From contig CAVYSE010000017.1 in NCBI GenBank assembly GCA_963771075.1, positions 96,001-160,000 of the forward strand: 64,000 nt of DNA, read 5' to 3'. A program made the position numbers and the translations under genes. The stretch's first letter is position 1; every line of letters starts with the position of its first letter. Under the pieces are notes generated by a model. That model saw only the letters and a list, made by a program, of their open reading frames with translations, searched no databases and was not told the origin of the DNA. The stretch comes from a candidate division FCPU426 bacterium. GTDB taxonomy: Bacteria > Oederibacteriota > Muellerivitia > Muellerivitales > Muellerivitaceae. This document shows, piece by piece, positions 20,116-64,000 of this stretch.

Positions 20116-20126
20116 CCGATCATTTC

Positions 20127-41571: not shown

Positions 41572-41581
41572 ATTTTTCCGT

Positions 41582-44504: not shown

Positions 44505-44582
44505 TTTGTTTTTCCCGGCGGCATGAATGTAAGACCGGTTTGGTTTACGAATGACCCCCGAAAGGGGAGGTCCGAATGGGCT

Positions 44583-45047: not shown

Positions 45048-45090
45048 CAGGGTCCTCCCCAAGAAATGGTGCTTCTTTTGAATCCCCGGC

Positions 45091-45651: not shown

Positions 45652-45704
45652 GGGAAACCCCCAATGGTGGTGAAGAGGCGACTTAAGCGCCTAAAAGAGG
45701 GGTT

Positions 45705-45732
45705 ATTCTAACATTCGATAGTGGGAAGTCAA
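45705..45732 (-). promoter_or_regulatory. Candidate sigma70 promoter upstream of hpf
   Basis: Minus strand TTGACT-N16-TAGAAT with an extended -10 TG. Confidence 0.5.
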
Positions 45733-45762
45733 TCGAAGGAGGGAAGGAGAAATCCCCAATTG

Positions 45763-47301
45763 TCAGAGTTTTCGTCTCTGGGACGCCGAAGGAATCCTCA
45801 ATTCCTCCCGATACTTGGCGATGGTGCGGCGTGCAATAGAAAGACCGTCTTGAGTGAGAATTTGCATGATCTTCTGATCCGAGTATGGTTTGCGGGCGGG
45901 TTCCTGGGACACTAATTCCTTTATCCTTTCTTTGACCGTTAACGATGAAATATCCATGCCGTCGGAGGATTCCAAACCGCTGGTGAAGAAATACTTCAAT
46001 TCGAACAAACCCCTGGGGGTCTGGACATACTTGTGGGTGGTTACCCGGGATACGGTGGATTCATGCATGCCAATCATGTCGGCGACCTGTTTCAAGGTCA
46101 GAGGTTTCAATCCAACTAGTCCTGACTCCAGAAAATCCCGTTGAATGCGGAAAATAGCCTCCGTGACACGATAGATTGTCTTGCGCCTCTGCTCAATGTT
46201 TTTAATGAGCCAAAGAGCGGACTGGATCTTCGACTCAAGAAATTTCTTTGTTTCCTTGCCTCCCAAGGTCGATTTATCGCGCAAAAGCTTGCGATAATAA
46301 CCTGAGATTCGCAGCTTGGGCACCGGCTCGTCATTCAAAACCACCACGTAATCGCCCTCGATCTTACGCACACTCACATCCGGGGTGATGTACTTGGTAT
46401 CTTCGGATTGGAAAGCCCGACCCGGTTTGGGGTCCAACGTGGCGATAAAATCCAATATGGGCCTTAGCTCTTCTTCCGCGCACTCCAAACCCTTGGCAAG
46501 GGTTGAATAACGGCGTTTTTCTAAATCATCGAAGAAATCATGAACTACCCGGTAGGCTTTCCGAGCTATCTCCCCAACCTTGCTTTCCAATTGAAGAAGC
46601 AAACATTCCCTTAGATTCCTGGCTCCCACGCCAGTCGGCTCAAAGGATTGGATCGTTTCCAGGGATTTCTCAAGTTTATCCAGGGGAATTCCTTGAGTGA
46701 TAGAGATGTTTTCGAGGGTATCGGTCAAATAACCGTTTTCATCCAGATTGCCAATGAGCAACTTACCTAGGGACAGTTCCTCGTCCCCCTGGGTTACTAG
46801 CAACAGCTGCCATTCCAAACTTTCGGCGAGTGTTTGGATTCGGGTGATGGATGCCTCGACATAATCCCTTTTTTCTTGCTCCGCCCCCGAGTCTTCCGAA
46901 CCCCCATAATTTCCGGGACCACCCTCATAATCGTCGCCCTGCCCCATGAGGGCCCAGGCCTCGATGTCGAAATGATCCCCTTCTTTCAAGTGCTCCACCA
47001 CATCATTCGTGGATCGTTGTTGAAGTCTTTCGAGCAATTCGGCTTCGGCGGTGTTGGTTTCCTGGGAGGCGTCGGCGGGAGGGGCGGGAGAAACGGTCTT
47101 ATCGTCGGCCGTTTCAGCAGGGGCTTCCTCTTGTTCCTCCTCCAGAACCGGATTTTCCATCATTTCCTTCTCGACCCACTCCTTCAGTTCCAGGGTGGAC
47201 AGCTGAAGGATCTTCATGGCCTGCTGCAACATGGGCGTCATGATCATGCGCTGTTGCATGCGCTGATGCATTCCGAAATTTTGGCGCATATTCCATGCCA
47301 C
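45763..47301 (-). CDS. rpoN: RNA polymerase sigma-54 factor
   Basis: MTPMLQQAMKILQL, GNLDENGYL, PTGVGARNLRECL, HESTVSRV, RpoN box ARRTIAKYRE. Confidence 0.97.
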   Translation of the reverse strand: MAWNMRQNFGMHQRMQQRMIMTPMLQQAMKILQLSTLELKEWVEKEMMENPVLEEEQEEAPAETADDKTVSPAPPADASQETNTAEAELLERLQQRSTNDVVEHLKEGDHFDIEAWALMGQGDDYEGGPGNYGGSEDSGAEQEKRDYVEASITRIQTLAESLEWQLLLVTQGDEELSLGKLLIGNLDENGYLTDTLENISITQGIPLDKLEKSLETIQSFEPTGVGARNLRECLLLQLESKVGEIARKAYRVVHDFFDDLEKRRYSTLAKGLECAEEELRPILDFIATLDPKPGRAFQSEDTKYITPDVSVRKIEGDYVVVLNDEPVPKLRISGYYRKLLRDKSTLGGKETKKFLESKIQSALWLIKNIEQRRKTIYRVTEAIFRIQRDFLESGLVGLKPLTLKQVADMIGMHESTVSRVTTHKYVQTPRGLFELKYFFTSGLESSDGMDISSLTVKERIKELVSQEPARKPYSDQKIMQILTQDGLSIARRTIAKYREELRIPSASQRRKL

Positions 47302-47396
47302 CCGGTAGGAGGTAACTGCGCAAGAATTATACCTTTTTTAGCAGAATTAGAGGAATTTCATTAACTTGCTCTTTTATTAACATTTATAAAGTTCTT

Positions 47397-48620
47397 TCAA
47401 TCAGACCAGCCCTTTTGGAACCTTGTCTTTTCCCATTGGCCAATCCAAAAGTCAAGATCAAAGGGTTTTGGATATTCTAAATGTCCTTTCCTAATTCCCC
47501 GTCCGCCCTTGAAGATCGACTTTAAGGTGCGAAAATTTTCCGGATTGACCAAGGGATCAAACTGGTAAAGTGCAAAGTCAGCCCACTTCCCCTTCTCTAA
47601 TGATCCAATGGAATCTTCATTCAATACCTTCGCCGCTTCCGAAGTGGCCATTCTCAAGCATTGGGCAGGCGTCATCCCGGTCTCTTGAAGATCCTTCCAC
47701 TCCTGTGTGGAAACTCCATAAGGCATATGGGGATTACCTGCGTCGGTTCCGTAGGCCACCCTCCCGCCTAGTGAAAGGTATCGTTCTAGGTTCTGCATGC
47801 TGTGGTAATGCCCTTCCCGAAAACCATGCCGGCAAAACTGGCCGAAGGGATGATCCAAACGTCTTTTCCATTCTTGCGCCCATCCTTCGTGCGCGTGCAA
47901 TGTCGGTAGGATTATAATTTTCTTTTTCACCGCTTCTTTCCAAAGGTCGTCTGAAACAGGCCGGGCGGGCATATGGGCCAATTCATCCACCCCATGAGCC
48001 ACACAAAGCTCAAAGTCCATTTCATTGGTGATATGGGCCGTAACACGCATCCCAAGTGCATGAGCGGCCGAAACTATCCCATCCATTTCGGCCTTGGAAA
48101 GACAAGGGCCTAGTTCATGTTCTAAACCGATTTTAATGACGTCCATTCCGAGTCCGGACAGCTTTTGGACCCGGTCCTGAGCTTGATAACGACCTTTAAT
48201 CGTAAAGGCAACACTCGGGCCCCACACGTTCTCGGGATAGCCTCCCGGACAAGTCAGGACCGGTCCCGAAGTGAACAACCGGGGAGATACAACACGTCCG
48301 GATCGTTCCTTCGCCTTCCATTCCAAGGCCGTATTCGCATCGCTGGCCAAATCACGGGCCGTGGTAACTCCATTCCGTAAAAAGCTGGCGAGAACTTTCT
48401 CATTGACCAAGGCATGAACATGTAGATCAATTAACCCAGGCAATAGAAATTGACCCTTTCCCGGAATTTCTTCTAATGCCTCGAACAACGGAGCTTTTGA
48501 CGAAGGCCCGGCGTAGATTATTTTCCCACGGAAAACCAACAGGACCGATTCCAAAATCGGTTGATCATGGACCCCGTCGTAAAGAGTGGCTTTTAAAATG
48601 GCAAGGTCGACTTTCAACAT
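47397..48620 (-). CDS. Metal-dependent amidohydrolase family protein
   Basis: LLPGLIDLHVH, GVTTARDL, VTAH, AYGTDAG, IGSLEKGKWAD. Confidence 0.88.
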   Translation of the reverse strand: MLKVDLAILKATLYDGVHDQPILESVLLVFRGKIIYAGPSSKAPLFEALEEIPGKGQFLLPGLIDLHVHALVNEKVLASFLRNGVTTARDLASDANTALEWKAKERSGRVVSPRLFTSGPVLTCPGGYPENVWGPSVAFTIKGRYQAQDRVQKLSGLGMDVIKIGLEHELGPCLSKAEMDGIVSAAHALGMRVTAHITNEMDFELCVAHGVDELAHMPARPVSDDLWKEAVKKKIIILPTLHAHEGWAQEWKRRLDHPFGQFCRHGFREGHYHSMQNLERYLSLGGRVAYGTDAGNPHMPYGVSTQEWKDLQETGMTPAQCLRMATSEAAKVLNEDSIGSLEKGKWADFALYQFDPLVNPENFRTLKSIFKGGRGIRKGHLEYPKPFDLDFWIGQWEKTRFQKGWSD

Positions 48621-48719
48621 AATTCTCCGTAACCCATCGGACCTTCGACTTATTTATGGAGGCCAATACAGCTTCGCTCAAACGCCGGACAAACTAGTCC
48701 CTTTCGCCAAAACCACTTT

Positions 48720-49627
48720 TTACTGGCCCAAAACGTCATTCAAAAGATAGGCCAGCCTTACTCCCGCCTTTTCCAACTGATGTTCCATGATAAATCTCAT
48801 TTTGCCGTTTTCATAATCCTCGGGCAAATCCCGACCCCAGCGGTTCTTCGGCAGGGGTCCCCTCGGCAACTCGTCATAGATGTTTTTCTGAGCGATTAAA
48901 AAAGACTCGTAAGCCCATTGCTCGGGAGTTCCCCCAACCCAATTGGATTCGTCGTTCGGATCCATCCCGGACTCCAGCCGGGTGGCCATTTCTCGAGGGG
49001 ATTGGGTATTGGTTGTTTCAAACCCATCATCATACGCCGAGCCAGCATGCGGGGGATGGATAATGGGTTGTGTTTCAAAAAGATCATCCCAGTACTTGTG
49101 GAGACATATCCAAATTTTCTTATTCCCTTTTTTAGACGGGATCGTAAACCATTTCTCGTTCCCCCCCGGTCGTTATCATCGGCGCAATGCAGGGGCTGGT
49201 GCAGATCGCCCACAAAATGCACCAAAAACTTCAAGGCCTCCCTTTTAACACCTTTTTTACCGAAAGGTTCCCGTAAGATTTGAACATCTTTATTAATCTG
49301 CTCCACCACGCAGTCCTCATATCGGCAAGCGGTTTCAAGGTCGAATTGCCCCTGGCCCTCCCGAACGTCGAGATTCAAGTAATGCCAGGGAGCCGTCTCC
49401 GGCCTTACATGGACAATGGCGTCGGCCCAAGTGGAAATCGAGGGCATATCTCGGTCTTGGCCTAACAATTCCCGGACAGACCTCCGGGCCTTGGGATTTA
49501 AACGGTCCTGGGCGATCCAGGCTATCGTTTTGTGGCCCACCGCCCCCCAAGCTTTTAGCGAACCGGGATAGGAAAAAATAAAGGTCAAGAAGGCGGCGAT
49601 CAAAATATTACGCTTAGGGAAAGTCAT
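48720..49627 (-). pseudogene. Secreted S1/P1 nuclease, split by a frameshift at a G7 tract (49161-49167)
   Basis: Signal peptide then WGAVGH, WAD, WHY, LKFLVHFVGDLHQPLH. Adding one G gives DRGGN...LHKYWD and joins the 48720-48989 ORF (WAYES...QLEKAGVRLAYLLN). Confidence 0.85.
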
Positions 49628-49773
49628 GGGTTTATCCAAAAAAGTCTGAAGAATATCGGCCTCGGATTATAACCCATCCAATTTAAAAAGTTTCAAAGCA
49701 GCGAAAGAAAGATAATCTTCAACCAAGATTTGGGCCCATCAATGGCCGCCGACAAGATAATCCCCAATTAAAT

Positions 49774-49803
49774 AAAAAAGGCCAGCCTTGTTTGGCTGGC
49801 CTT
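49774..49803 (-). terminator. Intrinsic terminator after the GH5 gene (left copy)
   Basis: AAGGCCAGCC-AAACAA-GGCTGGCCTT followed by a T-run on the minus strand. Confidence 0.85.
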
Positions 49804-49824
49804 CGGTTGCTTGATTTTACTTGT

Positions 49825-52800
49825 TTATCGAAGGACTAACATTTTCCCAACCGAATGGCCGCTGTTGGTGGTCACCACGACGTAATAAAGACCGCTCGCC
49901 AGCGGATTGTTCCAATTATCAACAAGGGAAATTTTCGGGTCATCCCCATACATCTTACTATACGTGTGTTTAAACACTTTTCGGTAAGCTACTGTGTAGA
50001 TTTCCACGGTTACGGAATTGCCCGTGTAGACCGGGGGACGAACAGCTACCTGGGCTGTACCATCCGCCGGGTTGGGGTATATCACAGGAACGCTTAAAGC
50101 AACCGGGGTATTGGTAATGGTGGCGGTAATTGTACCGGTGGTGGTTACCGTAAAGGTTAAGGTGGGGGTAATCGTGGCTGTGACCGTTAAGGATGGAGTC
50201 GGTGTGATCGTTTGAGTATTGGTAGACGTTAAGGTAGAGGTATTCGTTGGGGTTGAAGTGGCTTGCTGGCAATTCACGGTATTGCCCAAAACGGGCAGAC
50301 CCGATATTGACACCGGTTGGCCGCCGTTATTGGAGCTTATCCCCGTTAAACCACTGATTGAGAACTGATAGGTTCCGATGGCCGAATTATTGAAATTCAC
50401 CTGGAATTGCAGACTCACAGGCGAAGAGGTGACCGGGAAGTTATTCAAAGGTAACGTCGCAGTATTGCCCGTAAATCCTGTTATGGATCCCTCGAAAATT
50501 CCATTGGCATAAACGCTAACACTTGTAATGTTGGCTGCGTTCCCTCCAATGTCATCAAGAGTCACGTTCGTCAAGTTCACGGATAAGCTGGTCGTGTTGG
50601 TAAGGGTGGCCGACACCACCGTGACGCCAGAGCTTCCCGAGAGGGTATTTACCGTTGATGTAGTGGAACTCAAGTTCAAAACATTCGATGTAGGTGTAGA
50701 TGTTGCAGTTTGTGTTGATGTCGCCGTCTGAGTGGAGGTTGTGGTCGATGTGTCGGTAGGAGTATTCGTTGAAGTATAGGTATGAGTATAGGTGAAGACT
50801 GGAGTGTCGGTATTCGTTGGGGTTACTGTAATCGTACTAGTGGCTGTAGACGTGTTGGTCGCTGTTGAAGTGGCTGTTGACGTCGGTGTAAACGTAACCG
50901 TTGAGGTAAAGGTAAACGAAGCGGTCGAGGAAGGCGTACCCGTCGCTGTAGATGTATCGGTCGATGTTGGAGATTGGGTATTGGTGGGTGTGTTGGTAAC
51001 TGTTGTGGTATGGGTTTCCGTAAACGTATTGGTCATAGTTGGAGTATTCGTTACGGTGAAGGTATGGGTCTCTGTAAAGGTCGGTGTCAAAGTGGACGTA
51101 AAAGTGGGGGTTCTCGTAATAGTAGAAGTCGCCGTGGATGTGAGTGTATTAGTTACAGTGGGTGACAAGGTCAGTGTCGGGGATAAGGTAATTGTCGGAC
51201 TAAAGGGGAAAGTAGCAGTAGACGTTTCCGTGATGGTATACGTTGAAGTGATCGTGGGAGTCATCGTACGGGTCGCTGTCGAAGTCGATGTTGAGGTCGA
51301 GGTAAAAGAAGAAGTCGGCGTGTTAGTCACCGTCGATGTGTAGGTAGCGGTCGAAGTAGAGGTCGCCGTTGAGGTATGGGTGGGGGTATGGGTCGATGTA
51401 AACGTAACCGTACTGGTTAATGTATTTGTCGGCGTAAATGAGGCGGTGATGGTCGGTGTAAGGGTCACCGTCGGGGACAAAGTGATCGTTGGGCTTAACG
51501 GAAATGTGGCCGTTGGGGTGCCTGTTTGGGTCGGGGTTCCCGTAACGGAATTGGTCGGGGTGTTCGTGGGAGTCAAAGTGCGCGTAGCGGTTGAGGTAGA
51601 AGTCGAGGTGCCCGTGAAAGATGCGGTCGAAGTATGGGTCGACGTAAATGTCGCCGTGGCAGTCGCTGTAAAGGTGGAAGTTCCTGTTGAAGTGCGGGTG
51701 GCAGTCGCAGTGGTCGTAAAGGTGGAGGTCGGGGTCGAAGTTAGCGTTGGGGATAAGGTAATGGTTAAGGTAAATGGAGATGTTGCGGTGGGTGTTCCCG
51801 TGATTGTGGAAGTCATGGTACGGGTAGCTGTCGTTGTACTAGTTGAAGTAGAGGTAATAGTTGACGTGAAAGTGCCGGTTGACGTGGCAGTATAGGTACT
51901 GGTCAAAGTCTTAGTCGTTGTTTGGGTTGGAGTCGCGGTAGGAGATAAAGTATTAGTCGCTGAAAATTGAGTGGTCGCAGTGGGAGTCCCGGATAGGGTT
52001 GAGGTAGAGGTAGCAGTCGAGGTGTAGGTTGAAGTTGATGTGCGGCTTGAAGTCGATGAAGCTGTGGGAGTCACCGTTCCCGTACTCGAGAGTGTCGCGG
52101 TCGGTGTCATCGTCCTTGTATATGTCGGAGTAGGCGTAATTGTATTCGTGGGACTACTTGTAAAAGTCAAAGTATTGCCCACAGTCGCTGTTAAAGTGGC
52201 AGTCACGGATGGGGTTGAGGATTTTGTGGGCGTGTTGGAGGATGTTGAAGTTTGGGAAGGCGATGGAGACGCGGTGTTGGTGCGTGTAGTAGTAACTGTA
52301 TTGGTATTGGTTAAAGCCACCGTAGGTGTGCGAGTGGGAGTAAAGGTTGAGGTTTTTGCTACAGCGGAAGGGGTGGGCGTAATAGGCAGAGTCGAACCCG
52401 ATAAGCAGACGTCGTTGATATACATGCCAAAGGTCGTAGGTCCACCTTGGGTTTCCCATTGAAGGGCCAGCACTTGGGTGATGGCCTGGGATAGCCACAT
52501 CGTGACCCCCGCGCTGTTATGGGGCGGTGAATCGCCATCGCCACCATTCCAGTCCTGAAACTCCATTGCATTAATAGGAAAGCTCTCAAGAATCCAAGTA
52601 TTAGCCTGGTTCACAACAAAATTTTGACCGTATTGGTTCCCGTTACCCCCGCACGCAAAATACTGGCCTTGCCAAGTAATTGGCTCCTGGTTGATCGAGG
52701 GGTTGTTGAGCTGGAACCGGAGAGTTACGGGAGCCACCGTGGTTCGGACATAAAACGCGAAATTCGTCACCCAATTCAGGTTGGTATAACCCACCTGGAG

Positions 52801-54246
52801 ATCGGTTTGCAGGCCGAAACCGCAATAAGTTGCGGGTGAGCTTGTGCCGTTCTCGCTATATCCGCCACTTACGAAAGCCGAATAAGTTTCACTATTTGGG
52901 CCCGCAACGGCGCTGCTTAGGCAAGCCGTGCAATACAAATTAGTAGCGGGACAACTGGCGTAAGACAACATGGGGCTCGATGTTTCGGGTGCGCCGCTTC
53001 CAAGACTTTCCCAATTATAGGCCGACCAAGAACCGTTTAAGTTGTTGGTGGCGTAGGGCGCGCTCGTGTAGGGGCTCTGTGAAAAATTGGAGAGCATGAA
53101 GCAATTTCCTTCGGTGGGAACGGGAGTGGGGGTATAGGTCGCCCCGCCTATGGCGGAATCGCAGGATGGATTCGCCGTACCCGTCAAAGAATTATAGACA
53201 TACTGTCCGTGATAAGACGTGGGACTGTAGCCCGTCCAACTCGAGAGCAAGGGAGGGGAATTGGTCACTGACATGTTCCAAGCTGTCCAGCTTAAATTTC
53301 CTGGATCAAGAACACTTGAAATAAAATTTTGTGTGAACGCAGCGGTCCCGCAAGTAGCGCAGGGCCCAAACTCGCCAACCATCACGGGATAAGTGGTTGT
53401 AGATACGTTGACCGTTTGATTCGCATTATTAGAATAAATATGGCAGTCGTACAAAACCCCATTTCCACTCGTGGTCGAAAGTTCGTAGTTGGGCAAAATG
53501 CTTGCCAAATCGTTGCACCAGTTGAGACCCCCGGCAATACAAATATTGTTGGCACCTGTATTACGCACTGCGGTTAGCAAAGCGTTCATACCAGGAGTAT
53601 TGAACGAACCCGCCGACCCGCCGCTGTACCAGGCACTAGCGCCTAGGGTGTAGGGCTCGTTGTATAAATCAAAGAAAACCGCTGGATTGTTCATAGACCT
53701 GGCCGCCACGGAACTCCAAAAGGTGACAGCATTATAGTCCGCCATCTCCTGCTGGCCTGTGGCTGTTCCCCAACCCGCTCCCGTTGGGGGAGTAGTCGCT
53801 GAACTGGAGGTGCCTGAAAAGTGAAGATCGAGAATAATGTAACAATTTTGTGAGGAGCAAAGACTGACCAATTGATCCACCATGGCTGGATAACTATCGG
53901 GATAAAAAAACCACCGATCCTGGTTCAAGGGCAAACGAATAAAATTACTTTTCCAAGTATCGATAGCCTCGGTTGCAGTTGCGAGAATCCCAGATGGGTT
54001 AGCGTCATTGACTCCAAACTCGAGACCGTCGATGTCCACACCCCTCAAACGGACCGTGCACCCGCTACTCGCGTTGACGATTGCGCTACCATTAATTTTC
54101 AGTTGGGGGGGGGCTGCTTGGGCCGGTTGTGATAAAAGCAAAAGGCCAAAGCTTACAAGTAGAGCTATTAAATGGCGTTTAAATCGATTTAACGAAAACC
54201 GGATGAAGGGATTCATTAGGGAATAAAGCGCAGAAGAAAATCTCAA
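49825..54246 (-). CDS. Secreted GH5-family glycoside hydrolase with CBM/CIA30-like domain, long Thr/Ser-rich stalk and T9SS/FlgD-like C-terminal domain (copy 1)
   Basis: Likely TTG start after GGAGG; signal peptide ending AQA; LRGV, NFIRLPL, ILDLH, FDLYNEP (acid/base), PVMVGEFG (nucleophile); tail YPNP...IYT...LASGLYYVVV...KMLVLR. Confidence 0.85.
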   Translation of the reverse strand: MRFSSALYSLMNPFIRFSLNRFKRHLIALLVSFGLLLLSQPAQAAPPQLKINGSAIVNASSGCTVRLRGVDIDGLEFGVNDANPSGILATATEAIDTWKSNFIRLPLNQDRWFFYPDSYPAMVDQLVSLCSSQNCYIILDLHFSGTSSSATTPPTGAGWGTATGQQEMADYNAVTFWSSVAARSMNNPAVFFDLYNEPYTLGASAWYSGGSAGSFNTPGMNALLTAVRNTGANNICIAGGLNWCNDLASILPNYELSTTSGNGVLYDCHIYSNNANQTVNVSTTTYPVMVGEFGPCATCGTAAFTQNFISSVLDPGNLSWTAWNMSVTNSPPLLSSWTGYSPTSYHGQYVYNSLTGTANPSCDSAIGGATYTPTPVPTEGNCFMLSNFSQSPYTSAPYATNNLNGSWSAYNWESLGSGAPETSSPMLSYASCPATNLYCTACLSSAVAGPNSETYSAFVSGGYSENGTSSPATYCGFGLQTDLQVGYTNLNWVTNFAFYVRTTVAPVTLRFQLNNPSINQEPITWQGQYFACGGNGNQYGQNFVVNQANTWILESFPINAMEFQDWNGGDGDSPPHNSAGVTMWLSQAITQVLALQWETQGGPTTFGMYINDVCLSGSTLPITPTPSAVAKTSTFTPTRTPTVALTNTNTVTTTRTNTASPSPSQTSTSSNTPTKSSTPSVTATLTATVGNTLTFTSSPTNTITPTPTYTRTMTPTATLSSTGTVTPTASSTSSRTSTSTYTSTATSTSTLSGTPTATTQFSATNTLSPTATPTQTTTKTLTSTYTATSTGTFTSTITSTSTSTTTATRTMTSTITGTPTATSPFTLTITLSPTLTSTPTSTFTTTATATRTSTGTSTFTATATATFTSTHTSTASFTGTSTSTSTATRTLTPTNTPTNSVTGTPTQTGTPTATFPLSPTITLSPTVTLTPTITASFTPTNTLTSTVTFTSTHTPTHTSTATSTSTATYTSTVTNTPTSSFTSTSTSTSTATRTMTPTITSTYTITETSTATFPFSPTITLSPTLTLSPTVTNTLTSTATSTITRTPTFTSTLTPTFTETHTFTVTNTPTMTNTFTETHTTTVTNTPTNTQSPTSTDTSTATGTPSSTASFTFTSTVTFTPTSTATSTATNTSTATSTITVTPTNTDTPVFTYTHTYTSTNTPTDTSTTTSTQTATSTQTATSTPTSNVLNLSSTTSTVNTLSGSSGVTVVSATLTNTTSLSVNLTNVTLDDIGGNAANITSVSVYANGIFEGSITGFTGNTATLPLNNFPVTSSPVSLQFQVNFNNSAIGTYQFSISGLTGISSNNGGQPVSISGLPVLGNTVNCQQATSTPTNTSTLTSTNTQTITPTPSLTVTATITPTLTFTVTTTGTITATITNTPVALSVPVIYPNPADGTAQVAVRPPVYTGNSVTVEIYTVAYRKVFKHTYSKMYGDDPKISLVDNWNNPLASGLYYVVVTTNSGHSVGKMLVLR
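50687..52385 (-). repeat. Low-complexity Thr/Ser/Pro-rich coding region (degenerate xT repeats)
   Basis: About 560 codons of TxTxTPT-like sequence with recurring SPTITLSPT units. Confidence 0.9.
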
Positions 54247-54643
54247 AATATCCTCCAAAACTTTACAGGTCTGAAATCCGGGGCAACGGCGAGACAAAGT
54301 AATTCTATCTCAGTTATTTGATTTGGTGGGACAGGACAACATTTTTTATTGAACGATTTTAACGAGCAACCCGGCCTTTTTGAAAAATATTTAAGATGCT
54401 AATTTTATACTCATGAAATAATTGGACAGCTTCTTTAATTAAACGATTCCAAGTGTGTGTTTTTTTAAAAAGAACAACCTCTTTACCCCCCCACAAATCG
54501 TTTTTGGTCCCTTAAAAAGTAGGTTTTTCAACCTTTTTAATAAAACAAATTGAACGTATGAAGGAAAATGCTAGCTGAATCATCTTAAAAGAATTCTATA
54601 ATGCTTTCCGTTGTGGTTGTAGAGTCCTAGAACGGAGACCTGA

Positions 54644-55273
54644 ATGAAGTTCAAAACCTTTTTAAGATATATCCCAATTTTTTTAGTCTCACTGATTTCT
54701 TTGTTCGTCGCCTGCACTCGCATCAACACAACCCCCGTTCCCAATCCGACATTCCCCCCTCAAACGATCTGGAGTAATGGCACCGTCGGTACTTGGTTTG
54801 GAAATGTTTTAAACGGAAACAGTGGTGGATGTTGCCCCTCAACTAGTTCTATTTCTTCGGCATCGGATAATATTTCCGGTGATACAAACACCCTTCTTCT
54901 GTCCACAACCTATACTCATGGCTTTTATTTTTATTCTGCTTCAACCCCTTCGAATCCCTCTTCCTATTATTCCAAGGGCCATTTGCAATTTGATATTCGG
55001 TTGGAACAACCGCCCTCTCTTTTCACCTTGTTGTATGTGGAGTATCTTCTTCAGGCAAACAACGATAATGGGGCGGTCACTTTTAGCCCAAACTTCATAA
55101 ATTCTTTGAGTACAACTTCATTCACACATGTTTCTTTGCCCTTTACGACCTTCACCCCAGATTACGAAGCACAAAGCATTGATACGCCTTTTGAGATTTC
55201 CTGGCAAACCACTTCAGCCCCTTCAAACGGCAATATCGTAACCCTCGACGACATCGTCTGGACAGCCAATTAA
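54644..55273 (+). CDS. Hypothetical lipoprotein, possible carbohydrate-binding beta-sandwich (copy 1)
   Basis: GGAG RBS; signal peptide with FVAC lipobox; HLQFDIR...FTHVSLPF...VTLDDIVW pattern; TATAAT at 54597-54602. Confidence 0.7.
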   Translation: MKFKTFLRYIPIFLVSLISLFVACTRINTTPVPNPTFPPQTIWSNGTVGTWFGNVLNGNSGGCCPSTSSISSASDNISGDTNTLLLSTTYTHGFYFYSASTPSNPSSYYSKGHLQFDIRLEQPPSLFTLLYVEYLLQANNDNGAVTFSPNFINSLSTTSFTHVSLPFTTFTPDYEAQSIDTPFEISWQTTSAPSNGNIVTLDDIVWTAN

Positions 55274-55309
55274 AATTCAGGATCTCCAACCCTAAAGGTA
55301 ACTTTTTAT

Positions 55310-56409
55310 TTATCCCACTTTCGCCGGGTGTCCTTTTTTCTCATATTGTAAAATAAAGTTTTCCACCAGTTCATGGGCCTCTGAATCGGAATACTGAACT
55401 GGCGGTGTTTTGAAAAAATAGGCGGAAGGCCCCTCTATTGGCCCTGAAAGTTTATGGTCCAAGGCCAATTTGCAACAGCGAATAGCATCGATGCCCACCC
55501 CGGCGCTGTTGGGTGAATCCCAAACTTCCAATTTCAGTTCAATCGTCACGGGTACATCACCAAATTCCCTGCCTTCCAAGCGTATATGGGCCCATTTGCG
55601 GTCCTGCAGCCAGGGAACATAATCGGAAGGGCCAATATATATATTTTCGGGTTCGATCGGATGGGACAACTGGCTGACGACCGCTCCGGTCTTAGATATC
55701 TTTTTTGATTCCAACCTCTCCCGTTCCAACATGTTCTTAAAATCCATGTTTCCGCCGAAATTCAGCTGACTGGTACGGTCAAGGATCACTCCCCGGTCGG
55801 AAAACATTTTGGCCAGGACACGATGGGTGATGGTGGCTCCTACCTGGGCCTTAATGTCGTCCCCGAGAACGGGGACCCCGGCGTCGGCGAATTTTTTCGC
55901 CCAAGCGCTGTTGGAAGCGATGAAAACCGGCATGCAATTGACCACGCCCACCCCGGCCTTCAGCGCCTCGTTCATATAAAAATGGGTGGCTTTCTCGCTG
56001 CCCACGGGCAGGTAATTGACCAGCACGTCCGTGCGGGTTTCTTTCAGTATTTTCGCCACGTCCACGGGCTTTTCTTTGGATTCGATCACTATTTCCCGGT
56101 AATACTTTCCCAATCCATCCAAGGTATGGCCACGCTCCACCTTCACCCCAGCGCGGGCACATCGCTAAATTTGATCGTGTTGTTAATGGGCGCAAAAATA
56201 GCCTCGGAAAGGTCCTTCCCCACTTTGTTGGAATCCACATCAAAGGCGCAGGAAAATTCAATGTCGCCCACATGATATGAGCCTAAACGCACATGCATCA
56301 GACCCGGAACGAAACTCTCTTCCTCGGCGTCCCGGTAAAAACGCACACCTTGAACCAAGGAAGAGGCACAGCAACCCACTCCCACCAAGGCCACCCGAAT
56401 CTTAGGCAT
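55310..56409 (-). pseudogene. ino1: Myo-inositol-1-phosphate synthase, copy 1, with native start but 1-nt frameshift at 56146-56149
   Basis: AGGAG RBS + [30 protein letters not shown] causes a premature stop where copy 2 reads CTTGGGGTG. The remainder has [37 protein letters not shown]. Confidence 0.85.
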
Positions 56410-56464
56410 AGTCGTCAAGCTCCTGAAAAAATGAATCCTTTTATCGGCCCCGAGGGGCCTTTTG

Positions 56465-57580
56465 ATGAACCCAAAAGACACGCTGTATAACCGTGTGGCT
56501 GTGGTAGGAGTGGGTTGCTGTGCCTCTTCCTTGGTTCAAGGTGTGCGTTTTTACCGGAATGCCGATGAAGAGAGTTTCGTTCCGGGTCTGATGCATGTGC
56601 GCTTAGGCTCATATCATGTGGGCGACATCGAATTTTCCTGCGCTTTTGATGTGGATTCCAACAAGGTGGGGAAGGACCTTTCCGAGGCTATCTTTGAGCC
56701 CATTAACAACACGTTCAAATTCAGCGATGTGCCCGCGCTTGGGGTGAAGGTGGAGCGTGGCCATACCTTGGATGGATTGGGAAAGTATTACCGGGAAATA
56801 GTGGTCGAATCCAAAGAAAAGCCCGTGGACGTAGCCAAAATATTGAAAGAAACCCGCACGGACGTGCTGGTCAATTACCTGCCCGTGGGCAGCGAGAAAG
56901 CCACCCATTTTTATATGAACGAGGCGCTGAAGGCCGGGGTAGGCGTGGTCAATTGCATGCCGGTTTTCATCGCTTCCAACAGCGCTTGGGCCAAAAAATT
57001 CGCCGACGCCGGGGTCCCCGTTCTCGGGGATGACATTAAGGCCCAGGTAGGCGCGACCATTACCCATCGTGTCCTGGCCAAAATGTTCTCCGACCGGGGA
57101 GTGATCCTCGACCGTACCAGTCAGCTGAATTTCGGCGGAAACATGGATTTTAAGAACATGTTGGAACGGGAGAGGTTGGAATCAAAAAAGATATCTAAAA
57201 CCGGAGCGGTCGTCAGCCAGTTGTCCCACCCGATAGAACCCGAAAATATATATATTGGTCCTTCCGATTATGTTCCCTGGCTGCAGGACCGTAAGTGGGC
57301 CCATATACGCTTGGAAGGCAGGGAATTTGGTGATGTACCCGTGACGATTGAACTGAAACTGGAAGTTTGGGATTCACCCAACAGCGCCGGGGTGGGCATC
57401 GATGCTATTCGCTGTTGCAAATTGGCTTTGGACCATAAACTTTCAGGGCCAATAGAGGGGCCTTCCGCCTATTTTTTCAAAACACCGCCAGTTCAGTATT
57501 CCGATTCAGAGGCCCATGAACTGGTGGAAAACTTTATTTTACAATATGAGAAAAAAGGACACCCGGCGAAAGTGGGATAA
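56465..57580 (+). CDS. ino1: Myo-inositol-1-phosphate synthase, copy 2: uninterrupted frame but non-native N-terminus
   Basis: All MIPS motifs are in one frame; homology to copy 1 starts at 56492 (RVAVVGVG); the preceding residues derive from the spacer. Confidence 0.8.
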
Positions 57581-57616
57581 ATAAAAAGTTACCTTTAGGG
57601 TTGGAGATCCTGAATT

Positions 57617-58246
57617 TTAATTGGCTGTCCAGACGATGTCGTCGAGGGTTACGACATTGCCGTTTGAAGGGGCTGAAGTGGTTTGCCAGGAAATCTCAAA
57701 AGGCGTATCAATGCTTTGCGCTTCGTAATCAGGGGTGAAGGTCGAAAAGGGCAAGGAAACGTGTGTGAATGAAGTTGTACTCAAAGAATTTATGAAGTTT
57801 GGGTTAAACGTAACCGCACCATTATCGCTGTTTGCCTGAAGAAGATACTCCACATACAACAAGGTGAAAAGAGAGGGCGGTTGTTCCAACCGAATATCGA
57901 ATTGCAAATGGCCCTTGGCATAATAGGAAGAGGGATTCGAAGGGGTTGAAGCGGAATAAAAATAAAAGCCATGAGTATAGGTCGTGGAAAGAAGAAGGGT
58001 ATTTGTATCGCCGGAAATATTATCCGTTGCCGATGAAATAGAACTGGTTGAGGGGCAACATCCACCACTGTTTCCGGTTAAAACATTTCCAAACCAAAAA
58101 CCGATGGTGCCATTACTCCAGATTGTTTGAGGGGGCCAAGTCGGGTTTGGAACGGGGGTTGTGTTGATGCGGGTACAGCCGACGAATAAAGAAATCAGTG
58201 AGACTAAAAAAATTGGGATATAGCTTAAAAAGGTTTTGAACTTCAT
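57617..58246 (-). CDS. Hypothetical lipoprotein (copy 2)
   Basis: Same length (209 aa) as 54644-55273 with about a dozen substitutions; lipobox FVGC. Confidence 0.7.
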   Translation of the reverse strand: MKFKTFLSYIPIFLVSLISLFVGCTRINTTPVPNPTWPPQTIWSNGTIGFWFGNVLTGNSGGCCPSTSSISSATDNISGDTNTLLLSTTYTHGFYFYSASTPSNPSSYYAKGHLQFDIRLEQPPSLFTLLYVEYLLQANSDNGAVTFNPNFINSLSTTSFTHVSLPFSTFTPDYEAQSIDTPFEISWQTTSAPSNGNVVTLDDIVWTAN

Positions 58247-58653
58247 TCAGGTCTCCGTTCGAGGACTCTACAACCACAACGGAAAGCATTATAGAATTCT
58301 TTTAAGATGATTCAGCTAGCATTTTCCTTCAAACGCTCAATTTGTTTATTAAAAAGGTTGAAAAAACCGACTTTAATAAGGGACCTAAAATGATTTGTGG
58401 GGGAAAAGAGGTTGTTATTTAAAAAAACACACACAAGAAATCGTTTAATTAAAGAAGCTGAACAACTATTTCATGAATATAAAATTGGCTTATAAAATTA
58501 GCATCTTAAATATTTTTCAAAAAGGCCGGGTTGCTCGTTAAAATCGATTGATAAAAAATGTTGTCCTGTCCCACCAAATCAAATAACTGAGATAGAATTA
58601 CTTTGTCTCGCCGTTGCCATGGATTTCAGACCTGTAAAGTTTTGGAGGATATT

Positions 58654-61600
58654 TTGAGATTTTCATCTGAGCTTTGTTCCCTAATAAATCCATTCATTAG
58701 GCTTTCGTTAAATCGATTTAATAGCCGTTTAATCGCTCTTCTTGTGAGCTTCGGTCTATTGGTTTTATCCCAACCAACCCAAGCAGCCCCCCCCCAACTG
58801 AAAATTAATGGTAGCGCAATCGTCAACGCGAGTAGCGGGTGCACAGTCCGTTTGAGGGGTGTGGACATCGATGGTCTCGAGTTTGGAGTCAATGACGCTA
58901 ACCCATCTGGGATTCTCGCAACCGCAACCGAGGCCATCGATACTTGGAAAAGTAATTTTATACGTTTGCCCTTGAACCAGGATCGATGGTTTTTTTATCC
59001 CGATAGTTATCCAGCCATGGTGGATCAATTGGTCAGTCTTTGCTCCTCACAAAATTGTTACATTATTCTCGATCTTCACTTTTCAGGCACCTCCAGTTCG
59101 GCGACTATTCCCCCAACGGGAGCGGGTTGGGGAACCGCAACAGGTCAGCAGGAGATGGCGGACTATAATGCTGTCACCTTTTGGAGTTCCGTGGCGGCCA
59201 GGTATGAGAACAATCCAGCGGTTTTCTTTGACCTTTACAACGAGCCCTACACCCTAGGAGCTAGTGCCTGGTACAGCGGCGGGTCGGCGGGTTCGTTCAA
59301 TACTCCTGGTATGAACGCTTTACTAACCGCAGTGCGTAATACAGGTGCCAACAATATTTGTATTGCCGGGGGTCTCAATTGGTGCAACGATTTAGCAAGC
59401 ATTTTGCCCAACTACGAACTTTCGACCACGAGTGGAAATGGGGTTTTGTACGACTGCCATATTTATTCTAATAATGCGAATCAAACGGTTAACGTATCTA
59501 CAACCACTTATCCCGTGATGGTTGGCGAGTTCGGGCCCTGCGCTACTTGCGGGACCGCTGCGTTCACACAAAATTTTATTTCAAGTGTTCTTGATCCAGG
59601 AAATTTAAGCTGGACAGCTTGGAACATGTCAGTGACCAATTCCCCTCCCTTGCTCTCGAGTTGGACGGGCTACAGTCCCACGTCTTATCACGGACAGTAT
59701 GTCTATAATTCTTTGACGGGTACGGCGAATCCATCCTGCGATTCCGCCATAGGCGGGGCGACCTATACCCCCACTCCCGTTCCCACCGAAGGAAATTGCT
59801 TCATGCTCTCCAATTTTTCACAGAGCCCCTACACGAGCGCGCCCTACGCCACCAACAACTTAAACGGTTCTTGGTCGGCCTATAATTGGGAAAGTCTTGG
59901 AAGCGGCGCACCCGAAACATCGAGCCCCATGTTGTCTTACGCCAGTTGTCCCGCTACTAATTTGTATTGCACGGCTTGCCTAAGCAGCGCCGTTGCGGGC
60001 CCAAATAGTGAAACTTATTCGGCTTTCGTAAGTGGCGGATATAGCGAGAACGGCACAAGCTCACCCGCAACTTATTGCGGTTTCGGCCTGCAAACCGATC
60101 TCCAGGTGGGTTATACCAACCTGAATTGGGTGACGAATTTCGCGTTTTATGTCCGAACCACGGTGGCTCCCGTAACTCTCCGGTTCCAGCTCAACAACCC
60201 CTCGATCAACCAGGAGCCAATTACTTGGCAAGGCCAGTATTTTGCGTGCGGGGGTAACGGGAACCAATACGGTCAAAATTTTGTTGTGAACCAGGCTAAT
60301 ACTTGGATTCTTGAGAGCTTTCCTATTAATGCAATGGAGTTTCAGGACTGGAATGGTGGCGATGGCGATTCACCGCCCCATAACAGCGCGGGGGTCACGA
60401 TGTGGCTATCCCAGGCCATCACCCAAGTGCTGGCCCTTCAATGGGAAACCCAAGGTGGACCTACGACCTTTGGCATGTATATCAACGACGTCTGCTTATC
60501 GGGTTCGACTCTGCCTATTACGCCCACCCCTTCCGCTGTAGCAAAAACCTCAACCTTTACTCCCACTCGCACACCTACGGTGGCTTTAACCAATACCAAT
60601 ACAGTTACTACTACACGCACCAACACCGCGTCTCCATCGCCTTCCCAAACTTCAACATCCTCCAACACGCCCACAAAATCCTCAACCCCATCCGTGACTG
60701 CCACTTTAACAGCGACTGTGGGCAATACTTTGACTTTTACAAGTAGTCCCACGAATACAATTACGCCTACTCCGACATATACAAGGACGATGACACCGAC
60801 CGCGACACTCTCGAGTACGGGAACGGTGACTCCCACAGCTTCATCGACTTCAAGCCGCACATCAACTTCAACCTACACCTCGACTGCTACCTCTACCTCA
60901 ACCCTATCCGGGACTCCCACTGCGACCACTCAATTTTCAGCGACTAATACTTTATCTCCTACCGCGACTCCAACCCAAACAACGACTAAGACTTTGACCA
61001 GTACCTATACTGCCACGTCAACCGGCACTTTCACGTCAACTATTACCTCTACTTCAACTAGTACAACGACAGCTACCCGTACCATGACTTCCACAATCAC
61101 GGGAACACCCACCGCAACATCTCCATTTACCTTAACCATTACCTTATCCCCAACGCTAACTTCGACCCCGACCTCCACCTTTACGACCACTGCGACTGCC
61201 ACCCGCACTTCAACAGGAACTTCCACCTTTACAGCGACTGCCACGGCGACATTTACGTCGACCCATACTTCGACCGCATCTTTCACGGGCACCTCGACTT
61301 CTACCTCAACCGCTACGCGCACTTTGACTCCCACGAACACCCCGACCAATTCCGTTACGGGAACCCCGACCCAAACAGGCACCCCAACGGCCACATTTCC
61401 GTTAAGCCCAACGATCACTTTGTCCCCGACGGTGACCCTTACACCGACCATCACCGCCTCATTTACGCCGACAAATACATTAACCAGTACGGTTACGTTT
61501 ACATCGACCCATACCCCCACCCATACCTCAACGGCGACCTCTACTTCGACCGCTACCTACACATCGACGGTGACTAACACGCCGACTTCTTCTTTTACCT

Positions 61601-63075
61601 CGACCTCAACATCGACTTCGACAGCGACCCGTACGATGACTCCCACGATCACTTCAACGTATACCATCACGGAAACGTCTACTGCTACTTTCCCCTTTAG
61701 TCCGACAATTACCTTATCCCCGACACTGACCTTGTCACCCACTGTAACTAATACACTCACATCCACGGCGACTTCTACTATTACGAGAACCCCCACTTTT
61801 ACGTCCACTTTGACACCGACCTTTACAGAGACCCATACCTTCACCGTAACGAATACTCCAACTATGACCAATACGTTTACGGAAACCCATACCACAACAG
61901 TTACCAACACACCCACCAATACCCAATCTCCAACATCGACCGATACATCTACAGCGACGGGTACGCCTTCCTCGACCGCTTCGTTTACCTTTACCTCAAC
62001 GGTTACGTTTACACCGACGTCAACAGCCACTTCAACAGCGACCAACACGTCTACAGCCACTAGTACGATTACAGTAACCCCAACGAATACCGACACTCCA
62101 GTCTTCACCTATACTCATACCTATACTTCAACGAATACTCCTACCGACACATCGACCACAACCTCCACTCAGACGGCGACATCAACACAAACTGCAACAT
62201 CTACACCTACATCAGATGTTTTGAACTTGAGTTCCACTACATCAACGGTAAATACCCTCTCGGGAAGCTCTGGCGTCACGGTGGTGTCGGCCACCCTTAC
62301 CAACACGACCAGCTTATCCGTGAACTTGACGAACGTGACTCTTGATGACATTGGAGGGAACGCAGCCAACATTACAAGTGTTAGCGTTTATGCCAATGGA
62401 ATTTTCGAGGGATCCATAACAGGATTTACGGGCAATACTGCGACGTTACCTTTGAATAACTTCCCGGTCACCTCTTCGCCTGTGAGTCTGCAATTCCAGG
62501 TGAATTTCAATAATTCGGCCATCGGAACCTATCAGTTCTCAATCAGTGGTTTAACGGGGATAAGCTCCAATAACGGCGGCCAACCGGTGTCAATATCGGG
62601 TCTGCCCGTTTTGGGCAATACCGTGAATTGCCAGCAAGCCACTTCAACCCCAACGAATACCTCTACCTTAACGTCTACCAATACTCAAACGATCACACCG
62701 ACTCCATCCTTAACGGTCACAGCCACGATTACCCCCACCTTAACCTTTACGGTAACCACCACCGGTACAATTACCGCCACCATTACCAATACCCCGGTTG
62801 CTTTAAGCGTTCCTGTGATATACCCCAACCCGGCGGATGGTACAGCCCAGGTAGCTGTTCGTCCCCCGGTCTACACGGGCAATTCCGTAACCGTGGAAAT
62901 CTACACAGTAGCTTACCGAAAAGTGTTTAAACACACGTATAGTAAGATGTATGGGGATGACCCGAAAATTTCCCTTGTTGATAATTGGAACAATCCGCTG
63001 GCGAGCGGTCTTTATTACGTCGTGGTGACCACCAACAGCGGCCATTCGGTTGGGAAAATGTTAGTCCTTCGATAA
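58654..63075 (+). CDS. Secreted GH5 / CBM-like / Thr-rich / T9SS-tail-like protein (copy 2)
   Basis: Inverted copy of 49825-54246; GGAGG at 58644-58648 before TTG. Confidence 0.85.
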   Translation: MRFSSELCSLINPFIRLSLNRFNSRLIALLVSFGLLVLSQPTQAAPPQLKINGSAIVNASSGCTVRLRGVDIDGLEFGVNDANPSGILATATEAIDTWKSNFIRLPLNQDRWFFYPDSYPAMVDQLVSLCSSQNCYIILDLHFSGTSSSATIPPTGAGWGTATGQQEMADYNAVTFWSSVAARYENNPAVFFDLYNEPYTLGASAWYSGGSAGSFNTPGMNALLTAVRNTGANNICIAGGLNWCNDLASILPNYELSTTSGNGVLYDCHIYSNNANQTVNVSTTTYPVMVGEFGPCATCGTAAFTQNFISSVLDPGNLSWTAWNMSVTNSPPLLSSWTGYSPTSYHGQYVYNSLTGTANPSCDSAIGGATYTPTPVPTEGNCFMLSNFSQSPYTSAPYATNNLNGSWSAYNWESLGSGAPETSSPMLSYASCPATNLYCTACLSSAVAGPNSETYSAFVSGGYSENGTSSPATYCGFGLQTDLQVGYTNLNWVTNFAFYVRTTVAPVTLRFQLNNPSINQEPITWQGQYFACGGNGNQYGQNFVVNQANTWILESFPINAMEFQDWNGGDGDSPPHNSAGVTMWLSQAITQVLALQWETQGGPTTFGMYINDVCLSGSTLPITPTPSAVAKTSTFTPTRTPTVALTNTNTVTTTRTNTASPSPSQTSTSSNTPTKSSTPSVTATLTATVGNTLTFTSSPTNTITPTPTYTRTMTPTATLSSTGTVTPTASSTSSRTSTSTYTSTATSTSTLSGTPTATTQFSATNTLSPTATPTQTTTKTLTSTYTATSTGTFTSTITSTSTSTTTATRTMTSTITGTPTATSPFTLTITLSPTLTSTPTSTFTTTATATRTSTGTSTFTATATATFTSTHTSTASFTGTSTSTSTATRTLTPTNTPTNSVTGTPTQTGTPTATFPLSPTITLSPTVTLTPTITASFTPTNTLTSTVTFTSTHTPTHTSTATSTSTATYTSTVTNTPTSSFTSTSTSTSTATRTMTPTITSTYTITETSTATFPFSPTITLSPTLTLSPTVTNTLTSTATSTITRTPTFTSTLTPTFTETHTFTVTNTPTMTNTFTETHTTTVTNTPTNTQSPTSTDTSTATGTPSSTASFTFTSTVTFTPTSTATSTATNTSTATSTITVTPTNTDTPVFTYTHTYTSTNTPTDTSTTTSTQTATSTQTATSTPTSDVLNLSSTTSTVNTLSGSSGVTVVSATLTNTTSLSVNLTNVTLDDIGGNAANITSVSVYANGIFEGSITGFTGNTATLPLNNFPVTSSPVSLQFQVNFNNSAIGTYQFSISGLTGISSNNGGQPVSISGLPVLGNTVNCQQATSTPTNTSTLTSTNTQTITPTPSLTVTATITPTLTFTVTTTGTITATITNTPVALSVPVIYPNPADGTAQVAVRPPVYTGNSVTVEIYTVAYRKVFKHTYSKMYGDDPKISLVDNWNNPLASGLYYVVVTTNSGHSVGKMLVLR

Positions 63076-63096
63076 ACAAGTAAAATCAAGCAACCG

Positions 63097-63126
63097 AAGG
63101 CCAGCCAAACAAGGCTGGCCTTTTTT
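63097..63126 (+). terminator. Intrinsic terminator after the GH5 gene (right copy)
   Basis: AAGGCCAGCC-AAACAA-GGCTGGCCTTTTTT. Confidence 0.85.
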
Positions 63127-63272
63127 ATTTAATTGGGGATTATCTTGTCGGCGGCCATTGATGGGCCCAAATCTTGGTTGAAGATTATCTTTCTTTCGCT
63201 GCTTTGAAACTTTTTAAATTGGATGGGTTATAATCCGAGGCCGATATTCTTCAGACTTTTTTGGATAAACCC

Positions 63273-64000
63273 ATGACTTTCCCTAAGCGTAATATTTTGA
63301 TCGCCGCCTTCTTGACCTTTATTTTTTCCTATCCCGGTTCGCTAAAAGCTTGGGGGGCGGTGGGCCACAAAACGATAGCCTGGATCGCCCAGGACCGTTT
63401 AAATCCCAAGGCCCGGAGGTCTGTCCGGGAATTGTTAGGCCAAGACCGAGATATGCCCTCGATTTCCACTTGGGCCGACGCCATTGTCCATGTAAGGCCG
63501 GAGACGGCTCCCTGGCATTACTTGAATCTCGACGTTCGGGAGGGCCAGGGGCAATTCGACCTTGAAACCGCTTGCCGATATGAGGACTGCGTGGTGGAGC
63601 AGATTAATAAAGATGTTCAAATCTTACGGGAACCTTTCGGTAAAAAAGGTGTTAAAAGGGAGGCCTTGAAGTTTTTGGTGCATTTTGTGGGCGATCTGCA
63701 CCAGCCCCTGCATTGCGCCGATGATAACGACCGGGGGGGAACGAGAAATGGTTTACGATCCCGTCTAAAAAAGGGAATAAGAAAATTTGGATATGTCTCC
63801 ACAAGTACTGGGATGATCTTTTTGAAACACAACCCATTATCCATCCCCCGCATGCTGGCTCGGCGTATGATGATGGGTTTGAAACAACCAATACCCAATC
63901 CCCTCGAGAAATGGCCACCCGGCTGGAGTCCGGGATGGATCCGAACGACGAATCCAATTGGGTTGGGGGAACTCCCGAGCAATGGGCTTACGAGTCTTTT
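63273..64000 (+). pseudogene. S1/P1 nuclease copy 2, same G7 frameshift (63733-63739), truncated by window end
   Basis: Reverse complement of 48900-49627. Confidence 0.8.

Follow-up and report, generated by a model that had tools for sequence, protein, structure and literature searches.

Foldback artefacts of long reads have been described as strand switches that land within 200 bp of the same place and leave two near-equal halves (PMC12870357, BMC Genomics 2026). Long-read metagenome assemblers are known to concatenate haplotypes and to produce false duplications (10.1101/2025.04.22.649783), and palindromic reads have been described from MDA (PMC13265396). Genuine long inverted repeats are also known in bacteria: Lactobacillus crispatus M247_Siena carries 69.9-kb long inverted repeats that are delimited by insertion sequences and were checked by ultra-long reads and PCR (PMC12199158).

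The locus described here lies in a window of 64,000 nucleotides from a bacterium of candidate division FCPU426, which corresponds to positions 96001–160000 of a contig of 168,020 bases (G000:C17, hereafter C17). Like the reported foldbacks, it has a short turn (94 nt), halves of 15.5 kb each and a second half that ends the contig; the spacer falls within the published foldback definition, and 15.5 kb on either side fits a turn in the middle of a read. Unlike those foldbacks, which come from human, mouse and AAV reads, this one has become part of an assembled bacterial contig, and its halves differ by real-looking alleles in blocks (PMC12870357). With the false duplications of metagenome assemblers it shares a duplicate without independent flank, a mixture of subpopulation sequence and a metagenome-type assembly. 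The false duplications in the accessible part of that report, however, are direct repeats, and that part makes no mention of a spare copy capturing the reads of a congener (10.1101/2025.04.22.649783). The L. crispatus repeats resemble it as long inverted duplications of ordinary genes in a bacterial chromosome, but here there is no repeat element at the turn, the spacer is only 94 nt and one arm is flankless (PMC12199158). We conclude that the palindrome is very probably a fold-back assembly artefact, in which a read that had probably folded was built into the end of C17, the true continuation was displaced and polishing then probably shared the reads unevenly between the two copies.

The palindrome reaches the end of its contig

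A BLAST search of the window against itself gave a single minus-strand alignment, of 48900–64000 onto itself (97.5% identity, 15,130 columns, E = 0). On the whole contig, the left arm covers 40902–56397, and the right arm starts at 56492 and ends at 72020, the last base of C17 (window positions, counted on beyond its end). The two align over 15,553 columns at 94.0% identity; each is ~15.5 kb long, ~31 kb in total, and the spacer between them is exactly 94 nt. The earlier note's giant near-palindrome with a spacer of ~94 nt is therefore present in the assembled sequence and is larger than described there, and self-BLAST and gene calls agree with its four mirrored genes. The note had also asked whether the contig ends at its mirror point: C17 does stop inside mirrored sequence, leaving the right arm without the unique flank that both copies of a real long inverted duplication would have. 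The left arm and the genes mirrored within the window are as follows.

Left arm, 40902–56397, minus strand: ino1 to a GH57-like gene, collinear with positions 5008–21036 of the congener contig G003:C17 and continuous with upstream C17 sequence
ino1, mirrored within the window: assigned by Pfam (PF01658)
Left ino1, 55310–56409, minus strand: frame shifted by a gap of one base within a short run at 56149
Lipoprotein-like ORF, mirrored within the window: 209 aa, without Pfam family
GH5 protein, mirrored within the window: 1490 aa, assigned by Pfam (PF00150)
S1/P1 nuclease, mirrored within the window: assigned by Pfam (PF02265)

The gene order of the left arm is ino1, the lipoprotein-like ORF (on the plus strand), GH5, S1/P1 nuclease, amidohydrolase, rpoN, hpf, ptsN, hprK, yvcK, PTS genes and the GH57-like gene. 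Past the window, the right arm repeats amidohydrolase, rpoN, hpf, ptsN, hprK, yvcK, two PTS genes and the first 146 nt of the GH57-like gene (the labels ptsN, PTS and GH57 were assigned from translations and protein look-up). The left arm keeps all seven frames between manY/EIIB and rpoN open; in the right arm, the copies of five genes (rpoN, hpf, hprK, yvcK and EIIA) are frameshifted. Judged by its sequence, the left arm is a real chromosomal stretch.

The turning point severs pgsA

The centre of the palindrome falls between the end of pgsA and the start of ino1.

Spacer, 56398–56491, minus strand: the 3' tail of pgsA, 31 nt of intergenic sequence with a ribosome-binding site, and the first four codons of ino1 (ATG at 56409)
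Severed pgsA tail, 56441–56494, minus strand: codons 173–189 and the stop of a 189-aa CDP-alcohol phosphatidyltransferase (PF01066, E 4.6e-15)
Fold-back junction, 56492–56494, no strand: pgsA antisense turns into ino1 sense at codon 5

This centre had been taken for unique DNA, which it is not: 56398–56491 is also found at the end of contig C15, its only other match in the genome. C15:52890–53238 aligns to window positions 56494–56146 at 94.8% over 349 nt, with 2 differences inside the spacer, and C15 is identical to the right ino1 at 252 of 253 nt. In a three-way alignment with C15, at most 2 nt (CG) are shared at the junction before a mismatch; no insertion sequence or other repeat was found at the breakpoint. 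The only whole copy of pgsA sits on C15, together with a whole lptB. Overlaps of contig ends as short as these 349 nt link other contigs of the assembly as well (C11/C15 by 528 nt, C25/C28 by 290 nt).

In all 14 loci of relatives, pgsA immediately precedes ino1 and has the same orientation, and a search of both strands found a mirrored ino1 in none of these. ino1 matched in 29 of 40 other genomes, exactly once in each of the 29. G003:C17 is collinear through the left arm and then on through C15, for more than 30 kb. The sequence across the turning point thus exists unfolded at the end of C15, in the collinearity with G003 and in all 14 loci of the relatives. The earlier note had allowed for a stable inverted duplication as well as an artefact and had leaned towards the artefact on the ground that ino1 had no upstream room, and had pointed to related genomes for what precedes the gene; the lptB–pgsA pair found there (14 of 14 loci) and on C15 supports that leaning.

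C17 is not the only such contig. Five of 56 contig ends in the assembly fold back, with spacers of 22–244 nt, and the other four, on C18, C22, C24 and C26, are rich in indels. The turning point has a normal continuation elsewhere in four of the five: for C22 it is the start of C23, and for C18 and C26 it lies in further copies of multi-copy repeats. Taken together, the unbroken pgsA–ino1 region of relatives, a mirror that reaches the contig end, the continuation on C15 and the four further folded ends make an artefact most likely.

Divergence between the arms comes in blocks

The differences between the arms are unevenly distributed and divide the right arm into four parts.

Proximal block, 56492–59532, plus strand: ino1 without its first four codons, the lipoprotein-like ORF (on the minus strand) and the GH5 N-terminus; 157 of 3046 columns differ (5.2%)
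Near-identical core, 59533–64000 and on to 66101, plus strand: 5 of 6569 columns differ
Diverged block beyond the window, 66102–70950: 769 of 4868 columns differ (15.8%)
Identical tail, 70960–72020, up to the end of the contig: 0 of 1061 columns differ

Third codon positions account for most of the differences in ino1 (28 of 35), the lipoprotein-like ORF (24 of 36), ptsN (59 of 69) and hprK (112 of 146), and on the strength of this bias we rejected plain read noise as their source. The differences therefore look like real alleles, unlike the noise in the other four fold-backs, and call for a further step, which we infer to be the capture of foreign reads from co-occurring relatives during consensus polishing; the arm divergence fits such capture.

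The side on which these alleles fall changes along the arms. The left ino1 is nearer to congeners than the right one: at the sites that differ there, G003 sides with the left arm at 30, with the right at 3 and with neither at 2. Over five distal genes, it sides with the right arm at 414 sites, with the left at 138 and with neither at 85. The GC content at third codon positions is 0.83 in the right hprK and 0.81 in the right ptsN, compared to 0.66 and 0.60 in the left copies and a genome median of 0.67. Along rpoN–hprK, the share of G003-like letters climbs gradually, from 0.08 to ~0.6, without a step. Among 30 other family genomes, no donor of the right distal block was nearer than G003, at 86%. 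The earlier note had held the patterned divergence against a simple copy. This stands in so far as the right arm is no plain copy; as public-contig alleles switch arms, and as the diverged stretches lean towards a congener and are frameshifted, the pattern lends no support to a real duplication.

We also compared the junction and the right arm with Logan contigs of four runs, a set that excludes X4–X11 and X13, which share few or no words. The joint at the junction occurs in none of the 32 pieces listed out of 183, contigs of this kind being ones that drop rare variants. The fit of record 24 of run X3 breaks off precisely at 56494 and leaves 17 of its letters unmatched. Run X1 equals the right arm over 56609–56971, where the arms differ at 13 columns, and X1 and X2 carry left alleles at 58619–58755 and 70750–70947. 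The public-contig allele thus switches arms, right at ino1 and left elsewhere, within 2 kb. Contig depth in X1–X3 is 0–1.9 over the right distal block versus mostly 2–10 in the shared core, which reflects missing cover and not copy number. The exact right-arm PtsN was found on 3 contigs, from sources that include Logan, and the left-arm form on only 1, counts that do not fix the species' own distal allele. A 21-nt word ending at the junction had 0 matches in JGI metagenome contigs, a result uninformative for either join.

Discussion

How might such a structure have formed? A long read probably doubled back at the boundary between pgsA and ino1 and was built into the end of C17. The molecule would have been ~31 kb long (15.5 kb out, 15.5 kb back, ~94 nt unmirrored) and would have slipped past the assembler's chimera filter, while the true continuation, pgsA–lptB–lptA, would have been displaced to what is now the end of C15. 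In polishing, the accessory GH5, nuclease and amidohydrolase genes would draw reads of this species only, leaving both copies near-identical. The conserved core genes would also draw reads of relatives, and one copy would be overwritten by these foreign reads: the left at ino1, the right from rpoN to yvcK. The outcome would be real-looking synonymous changes on an error-rich backbone. Neither the sequencing platform nor the polishing procedure is on record for this assembly; both are inferred here.

A genuine inverted duplication formed by fold-back in a minor lineage of the population, in which snap-back into ino1 repaired a break within pgsA, gene conversion kept the middle and the ends diverged or took congener tracts, would also give synonymous-biased differences in blocks, and it has precedents in the long inverted repeats of bacteria (PMC12199158). 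The instability of long palindromes under SbcCD had been raised against it; we dropped that argument, as a search of this genome, which is 96.7% complete, gave no match to sbcC or sbcD. The usual palindrome-destroying route may therefore be missing, and a palindrome could persist. We nevertheless consider such a duplication very unlikely. The right arm has no unique flank, four other contig ends share the geometry, and no relative's locus has a mirrored ino1. The lineage would lose pgsA codons 1–172 here along with the link to lptB, whereas C15 has the intact join. A divergence of 16% would make the duplication very old, which clashes with a 6.5-kb core with 5 differences and a tail with none, and equal ageing predicts that an outgroup sides evenly, not 30:3 with the left arm at ino1 and 414:138 with the right over the distal genes. 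That a lineage apparently without SbcCD should truly harbour a palindrome of 31 kb round a 94-nt loop, with its middle kept identical by gene conversion and its ino1 and rpoN–yvcK tracts swapped in from congeners, is hardly to be expected. In such a lineage, the spare arm would be a landing pad for cross-species alleles.

Hairpin telomeres yield contigs that turn round and finish in mirrored sequence, as C17 does, but a covalently closed hairpin end of a linear replicon, read through, is extremely improbable here. The conserved gene broken at the turn carries on both on C15 and in all 14 loci of relatives, the 94-nt unpaired centre lies inside pgsA with no perfect palindrome at the turn, and there are five such ends at unrelated places. 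An artefact of a different kind, from the assembler or from whole-genome amplification, would have an inverted chimera or graph path join two strain haplotypes head to head, the right arm being largely one real second strain, recombinant with a 4.8-kb congener tract. The occurrence of the right-arm PtsN on other contigs is in keeping with this, as are the known haplotype concatenation and false duplications (10.1101/2025.04.22.649783) and palindromic MDA reads (PMC13265396). A real second strain, however, accords poorly with five frameshifted right-arm genes, rpoN included, with a foreign share that forms a gradient and with a public-contig allele that changes arm within 2 kb; a sharing of at most 2 nt at the junction also counts against the head-to-head join, and we consider this possibility very unlikely. 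A fold-back artefact followed by uneven polishing remains our preferred explanation.

These results carry a warning: once a fold-back is fixed in a public assembly of high completeness, it can acquire block-wise divergence with a synonymous bias and so resemble an old duplication under gene conversion. Through the artefact, copies of core genes that are frameshifted and congener-like also enter protein databases, where we found such copies on record. A quick screen would pick out contig ends that are mirrored in the interior of the same contig and whose turning point continues on another contig. In this genome, the second gene copies and the divergence pattern on these arms should be read as artefact-affected. 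The real locus is most likely single-copy, an ordinary lpt-pgsA-ino1 ... rpoN-hpf-ptsN-hprK region, and the palindrome, most likely without biological function, is very probably irrelevant to the biology of the organism.

Extent and geometry of the mirrored stretch

The giant near-palindrome that the earlier note had described at 48900-64000 was borne out by self-alignment of the window, in which this segment matches its own reverse complement at 97.5%. Aligned on the whole contig, C17, of which the window is 96001-160000, with coordinates continued as window positions, the two arms span 15,553 columns at 94.0% identity around a 94-nt spacer:

56397 down to 40902: left arm
56492-72020: right arm; 72020 is the last base of contig C17

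To the question of whether the contig ends within its mirror, the answer is thus yes. Because the right arm reaches the contig's last base, the structure totals 31 kb and has no unique sequence past the right arm. The arms differ at 157 of 3,046 columns in the block nearest the centre, 5 of 6,569 in the core, 769 of 4,868 in the distal block and 0 of 1,061 in the tail.

Two of the mirrored genes have features of their own. One (49825-54297, mirror 58603-63075) encodes a protein of 1490 aa whose residues 90-343 form a GH5 domain (PF00150); the protein also carries a C-terminal domain and a long linker rich in Thr, and stretches like the linker and C-terminal part occur on contigs C8, C11, C14 and C28. 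Compared with the 284-aa protein of a congener genome, G003, the S1/P1 nuclease gene (48896-49639, mirror 63261-64004) changes frame around residue 157 in the left and the right arm alike; this is either a consensus error common to both or a true polymorphism. At 63732, a contig from public run X1 has one extra base, absent from run X2, which has depth there.

The junction lies inside pgsA

The spacer is composed of the following elements:

56494-56441, minus strand: 3' tail of pgsA, codons 173-189 and stop
between the pgsA tail and ino1, minus strand: 31-nt gap with a ribosome-binding site
ATG at 56409, minus strand: ino1 codons 1-4

At 56492-56494 the contig exits pgsA and re-enters ino1 at codon 5 on the opposite strand, with at most two letters compatible with both sides. 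A 372-aa ORF at 56462 has its first codons supplied by pgsA antisense. The final 350 bases of another contig, C15, match 56146-56494 at 94.8%, and its end is the same as the right ino1 copy at 252 of 253 nt. C15 carries an lptA-like gene (PF03968), an lptB-like gene (ABC transporter), pgsA (PF01066) and then the start of ino1.

Part of the centre is present in 11 public runs from four studies. We compared assembled contigs from four runs, including X1, the possible source sample, with the right arm and centre. No joint at the junction was seen among the 32 of 183 contig pieces listed. A 345-nt contig from X3, a different study, fits 56168-56494 and ends its fit at the junction with 17 letters left over. 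On this scope, the contigs lend support, but not proof, to an artefactual junction.

Fold-backs at other contig ends

Screening of 56 contig ends revealed five fold-backs, all at the 3' end, with spacers of 94 (C17), 244 (C18), 81 (C22), 22 (C24) and 47 nt (C26). Those other than C17 are:

C18:280122-284542: fold-back 3' end
C22:27821-33652: fold-back 3' end
C24:172310-179859: fold-back 3' end
C26:137354-144686: fold-back 3' end

The arms of these four are 80-94% alike with many small gaps, a richness that resembles raw long-read tails and suggests such a platform; features called on them are probably artefacts too. C23 begins with the continuation of the C22 turning point (948 nt at 99.5%). 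The C18 and C26 turning points lie within multi-copy repeats, whose other copies match to the spacer end and then continue. For C24, no second copy of the turning point was found.

Other repeats were also seen. C10 contains an internal inverted repeat (42046-51119; 4.5 kb, 97%, 152-nt spacer) whose arms each carry, at the outer end, a multi-copy repeat of 1,053 nt. C28:10022-14901 matches part of this structure, which may be either a sixth fold-back or a product of IS activity. C7 (~217650-222300) and C14 (~78900-82340) carry long tandem low-complexity repeats, 77-80% alike between contigs. In the window, two diverged direct repeats at 6836-7810 and 9780-10505 (74% alike across 275 nt and 66% across 229 nt) are probably paralogous genes, and a 46-nt hairpin lies at 37194-37239.

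Patterned divergence between the arms

The arm differences are real alleles, dominated by third codon positions: 28/35 in ino1, 24/36 in the lipoprotein-like ORF, 64/85 in rpoN, 74/100 in hpf, 59/69 in ptsN, 112/146 in hprK and 170/240 in yvcK. At the differing sites of ino1, G003 sides with the left arm at 30, the right at 3 and neither at 2 (23, 8 and 4 for a further comparison genome, G001). Across the 3' part of rpoN, hpf, ptsN, hprK and yvcK, G003 sides with the right at 414, the left at 138 and neither at 85; the GH5 N-terminus and lipoprotein show no lean (4:6 and 2:3). The share of G003-like letters rises from 0.08 to ~0.6 across 2 kb. In two genes GC3 is higher on the right than on the left (hprK 0.83 vs 0.66, ptsN 0.81 vs 0.60), the right values being close to the genome's 95th percentile (0.81). 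Right rpoN, hpf, hprK, yvcK and EIIA carry frameshifts, whereas the left copies are open.

A search of 30 further genomes of the family yielded no donor of the right distal block, the best reaching 86%. Exact matches to right-arm PtsN occur on three contigs and to left-arm PtsN on one, to left HprK on two, and to the right and left lipoprotein on two and one; these counts cut against a tidy picture. The right alleles exist in some organism, foreign or not, and either distal allele may be the species' own. Over 56609-56971, a stretch with 13 columns of difference between the arms, among them a one-base gap that shifts the left ino1 frame, an X1 contig is the same as the right arm. Another, at 55137-55530, is one letter off the left arm where the arms differ at five, and X1 and X2 contigs have left letters at 58619-58755 and 70750-70947. 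The public contigs side with different arms in different places, and therefore neither arm is one consistent haplotype.

In the simplest reading, a spare copy would have split the read pile during consensus. Accessory genes would be covered by reads of the FCPU426 species alone, so that the arms agree there; in conserved genes, reads from co-occurring relatives would have overwritten one of the two copies. We liken the mirrored arms to the strain-mixing errors of metagenome assemblers described in 10.1101/2025.04.22.649783.

Artefact or inverted duplication

The 31-kb mirrored stretch is very probably not a real feature. It behaves as a long-read foldback artefact fixed in the assembly and holds up on the points that can be tested. 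Its 94-nt spacer is within the 200-bp foldback criterion given in PMC12870357, whose authors hold that foldback molecules most likely originate in library preparation. The hairpin-telomere feature tested, a perfect short palindrome at a true replicon end, is absent.

Long inverted duplications do occur, as in Lactobacillus crispatus, for which PMC12199158 describes real IS-delimited inverted repeats of 69.9 kb. Nor can the earlier note's argument from SbcCD-based instability be used against one here, since neither sbcC (TIGR00618) nor sbcD (TIGR00619) has a match in this 96.7% complete genome (search controls positive in 14/14 and 13/14 genomes), an absence that would let a real duplication persist. 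Such a duplication, however, would require a break inside pgsA, a 16%-diverged block sandwiched by an identical core and tail, a right arm without a flank, and four look-alike contig ends by coincidence. Flanks of its own and a repeat at the breakpoint, two marks of a real inverted duplication, were looked for here, and the stretch has neither.

The order of the locus in relatives

An ino1 DNA search of 40 other genomes matched 29, with one match apiece. As to what precedes ino1 in related genomes, a point raised in the earlier note, pgsA lies immediately upstream on the same strand in all 14 relatives' loci fetched, and in none is ino1 on both strands; these loci extend only ~1.5 kb past ino1 and, coming from kin, are not independent. 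Similar short end overlaps join other contigs of the assembly under study. In G003, a single contig is collinear with the left arm and then directly on through C15, over more than 30 kb. From this collinearity and the pgsA-ino1 order of the relatives, we therefore conclude that the real chromosome runs from the left arm through the spacer into C15 reversed.
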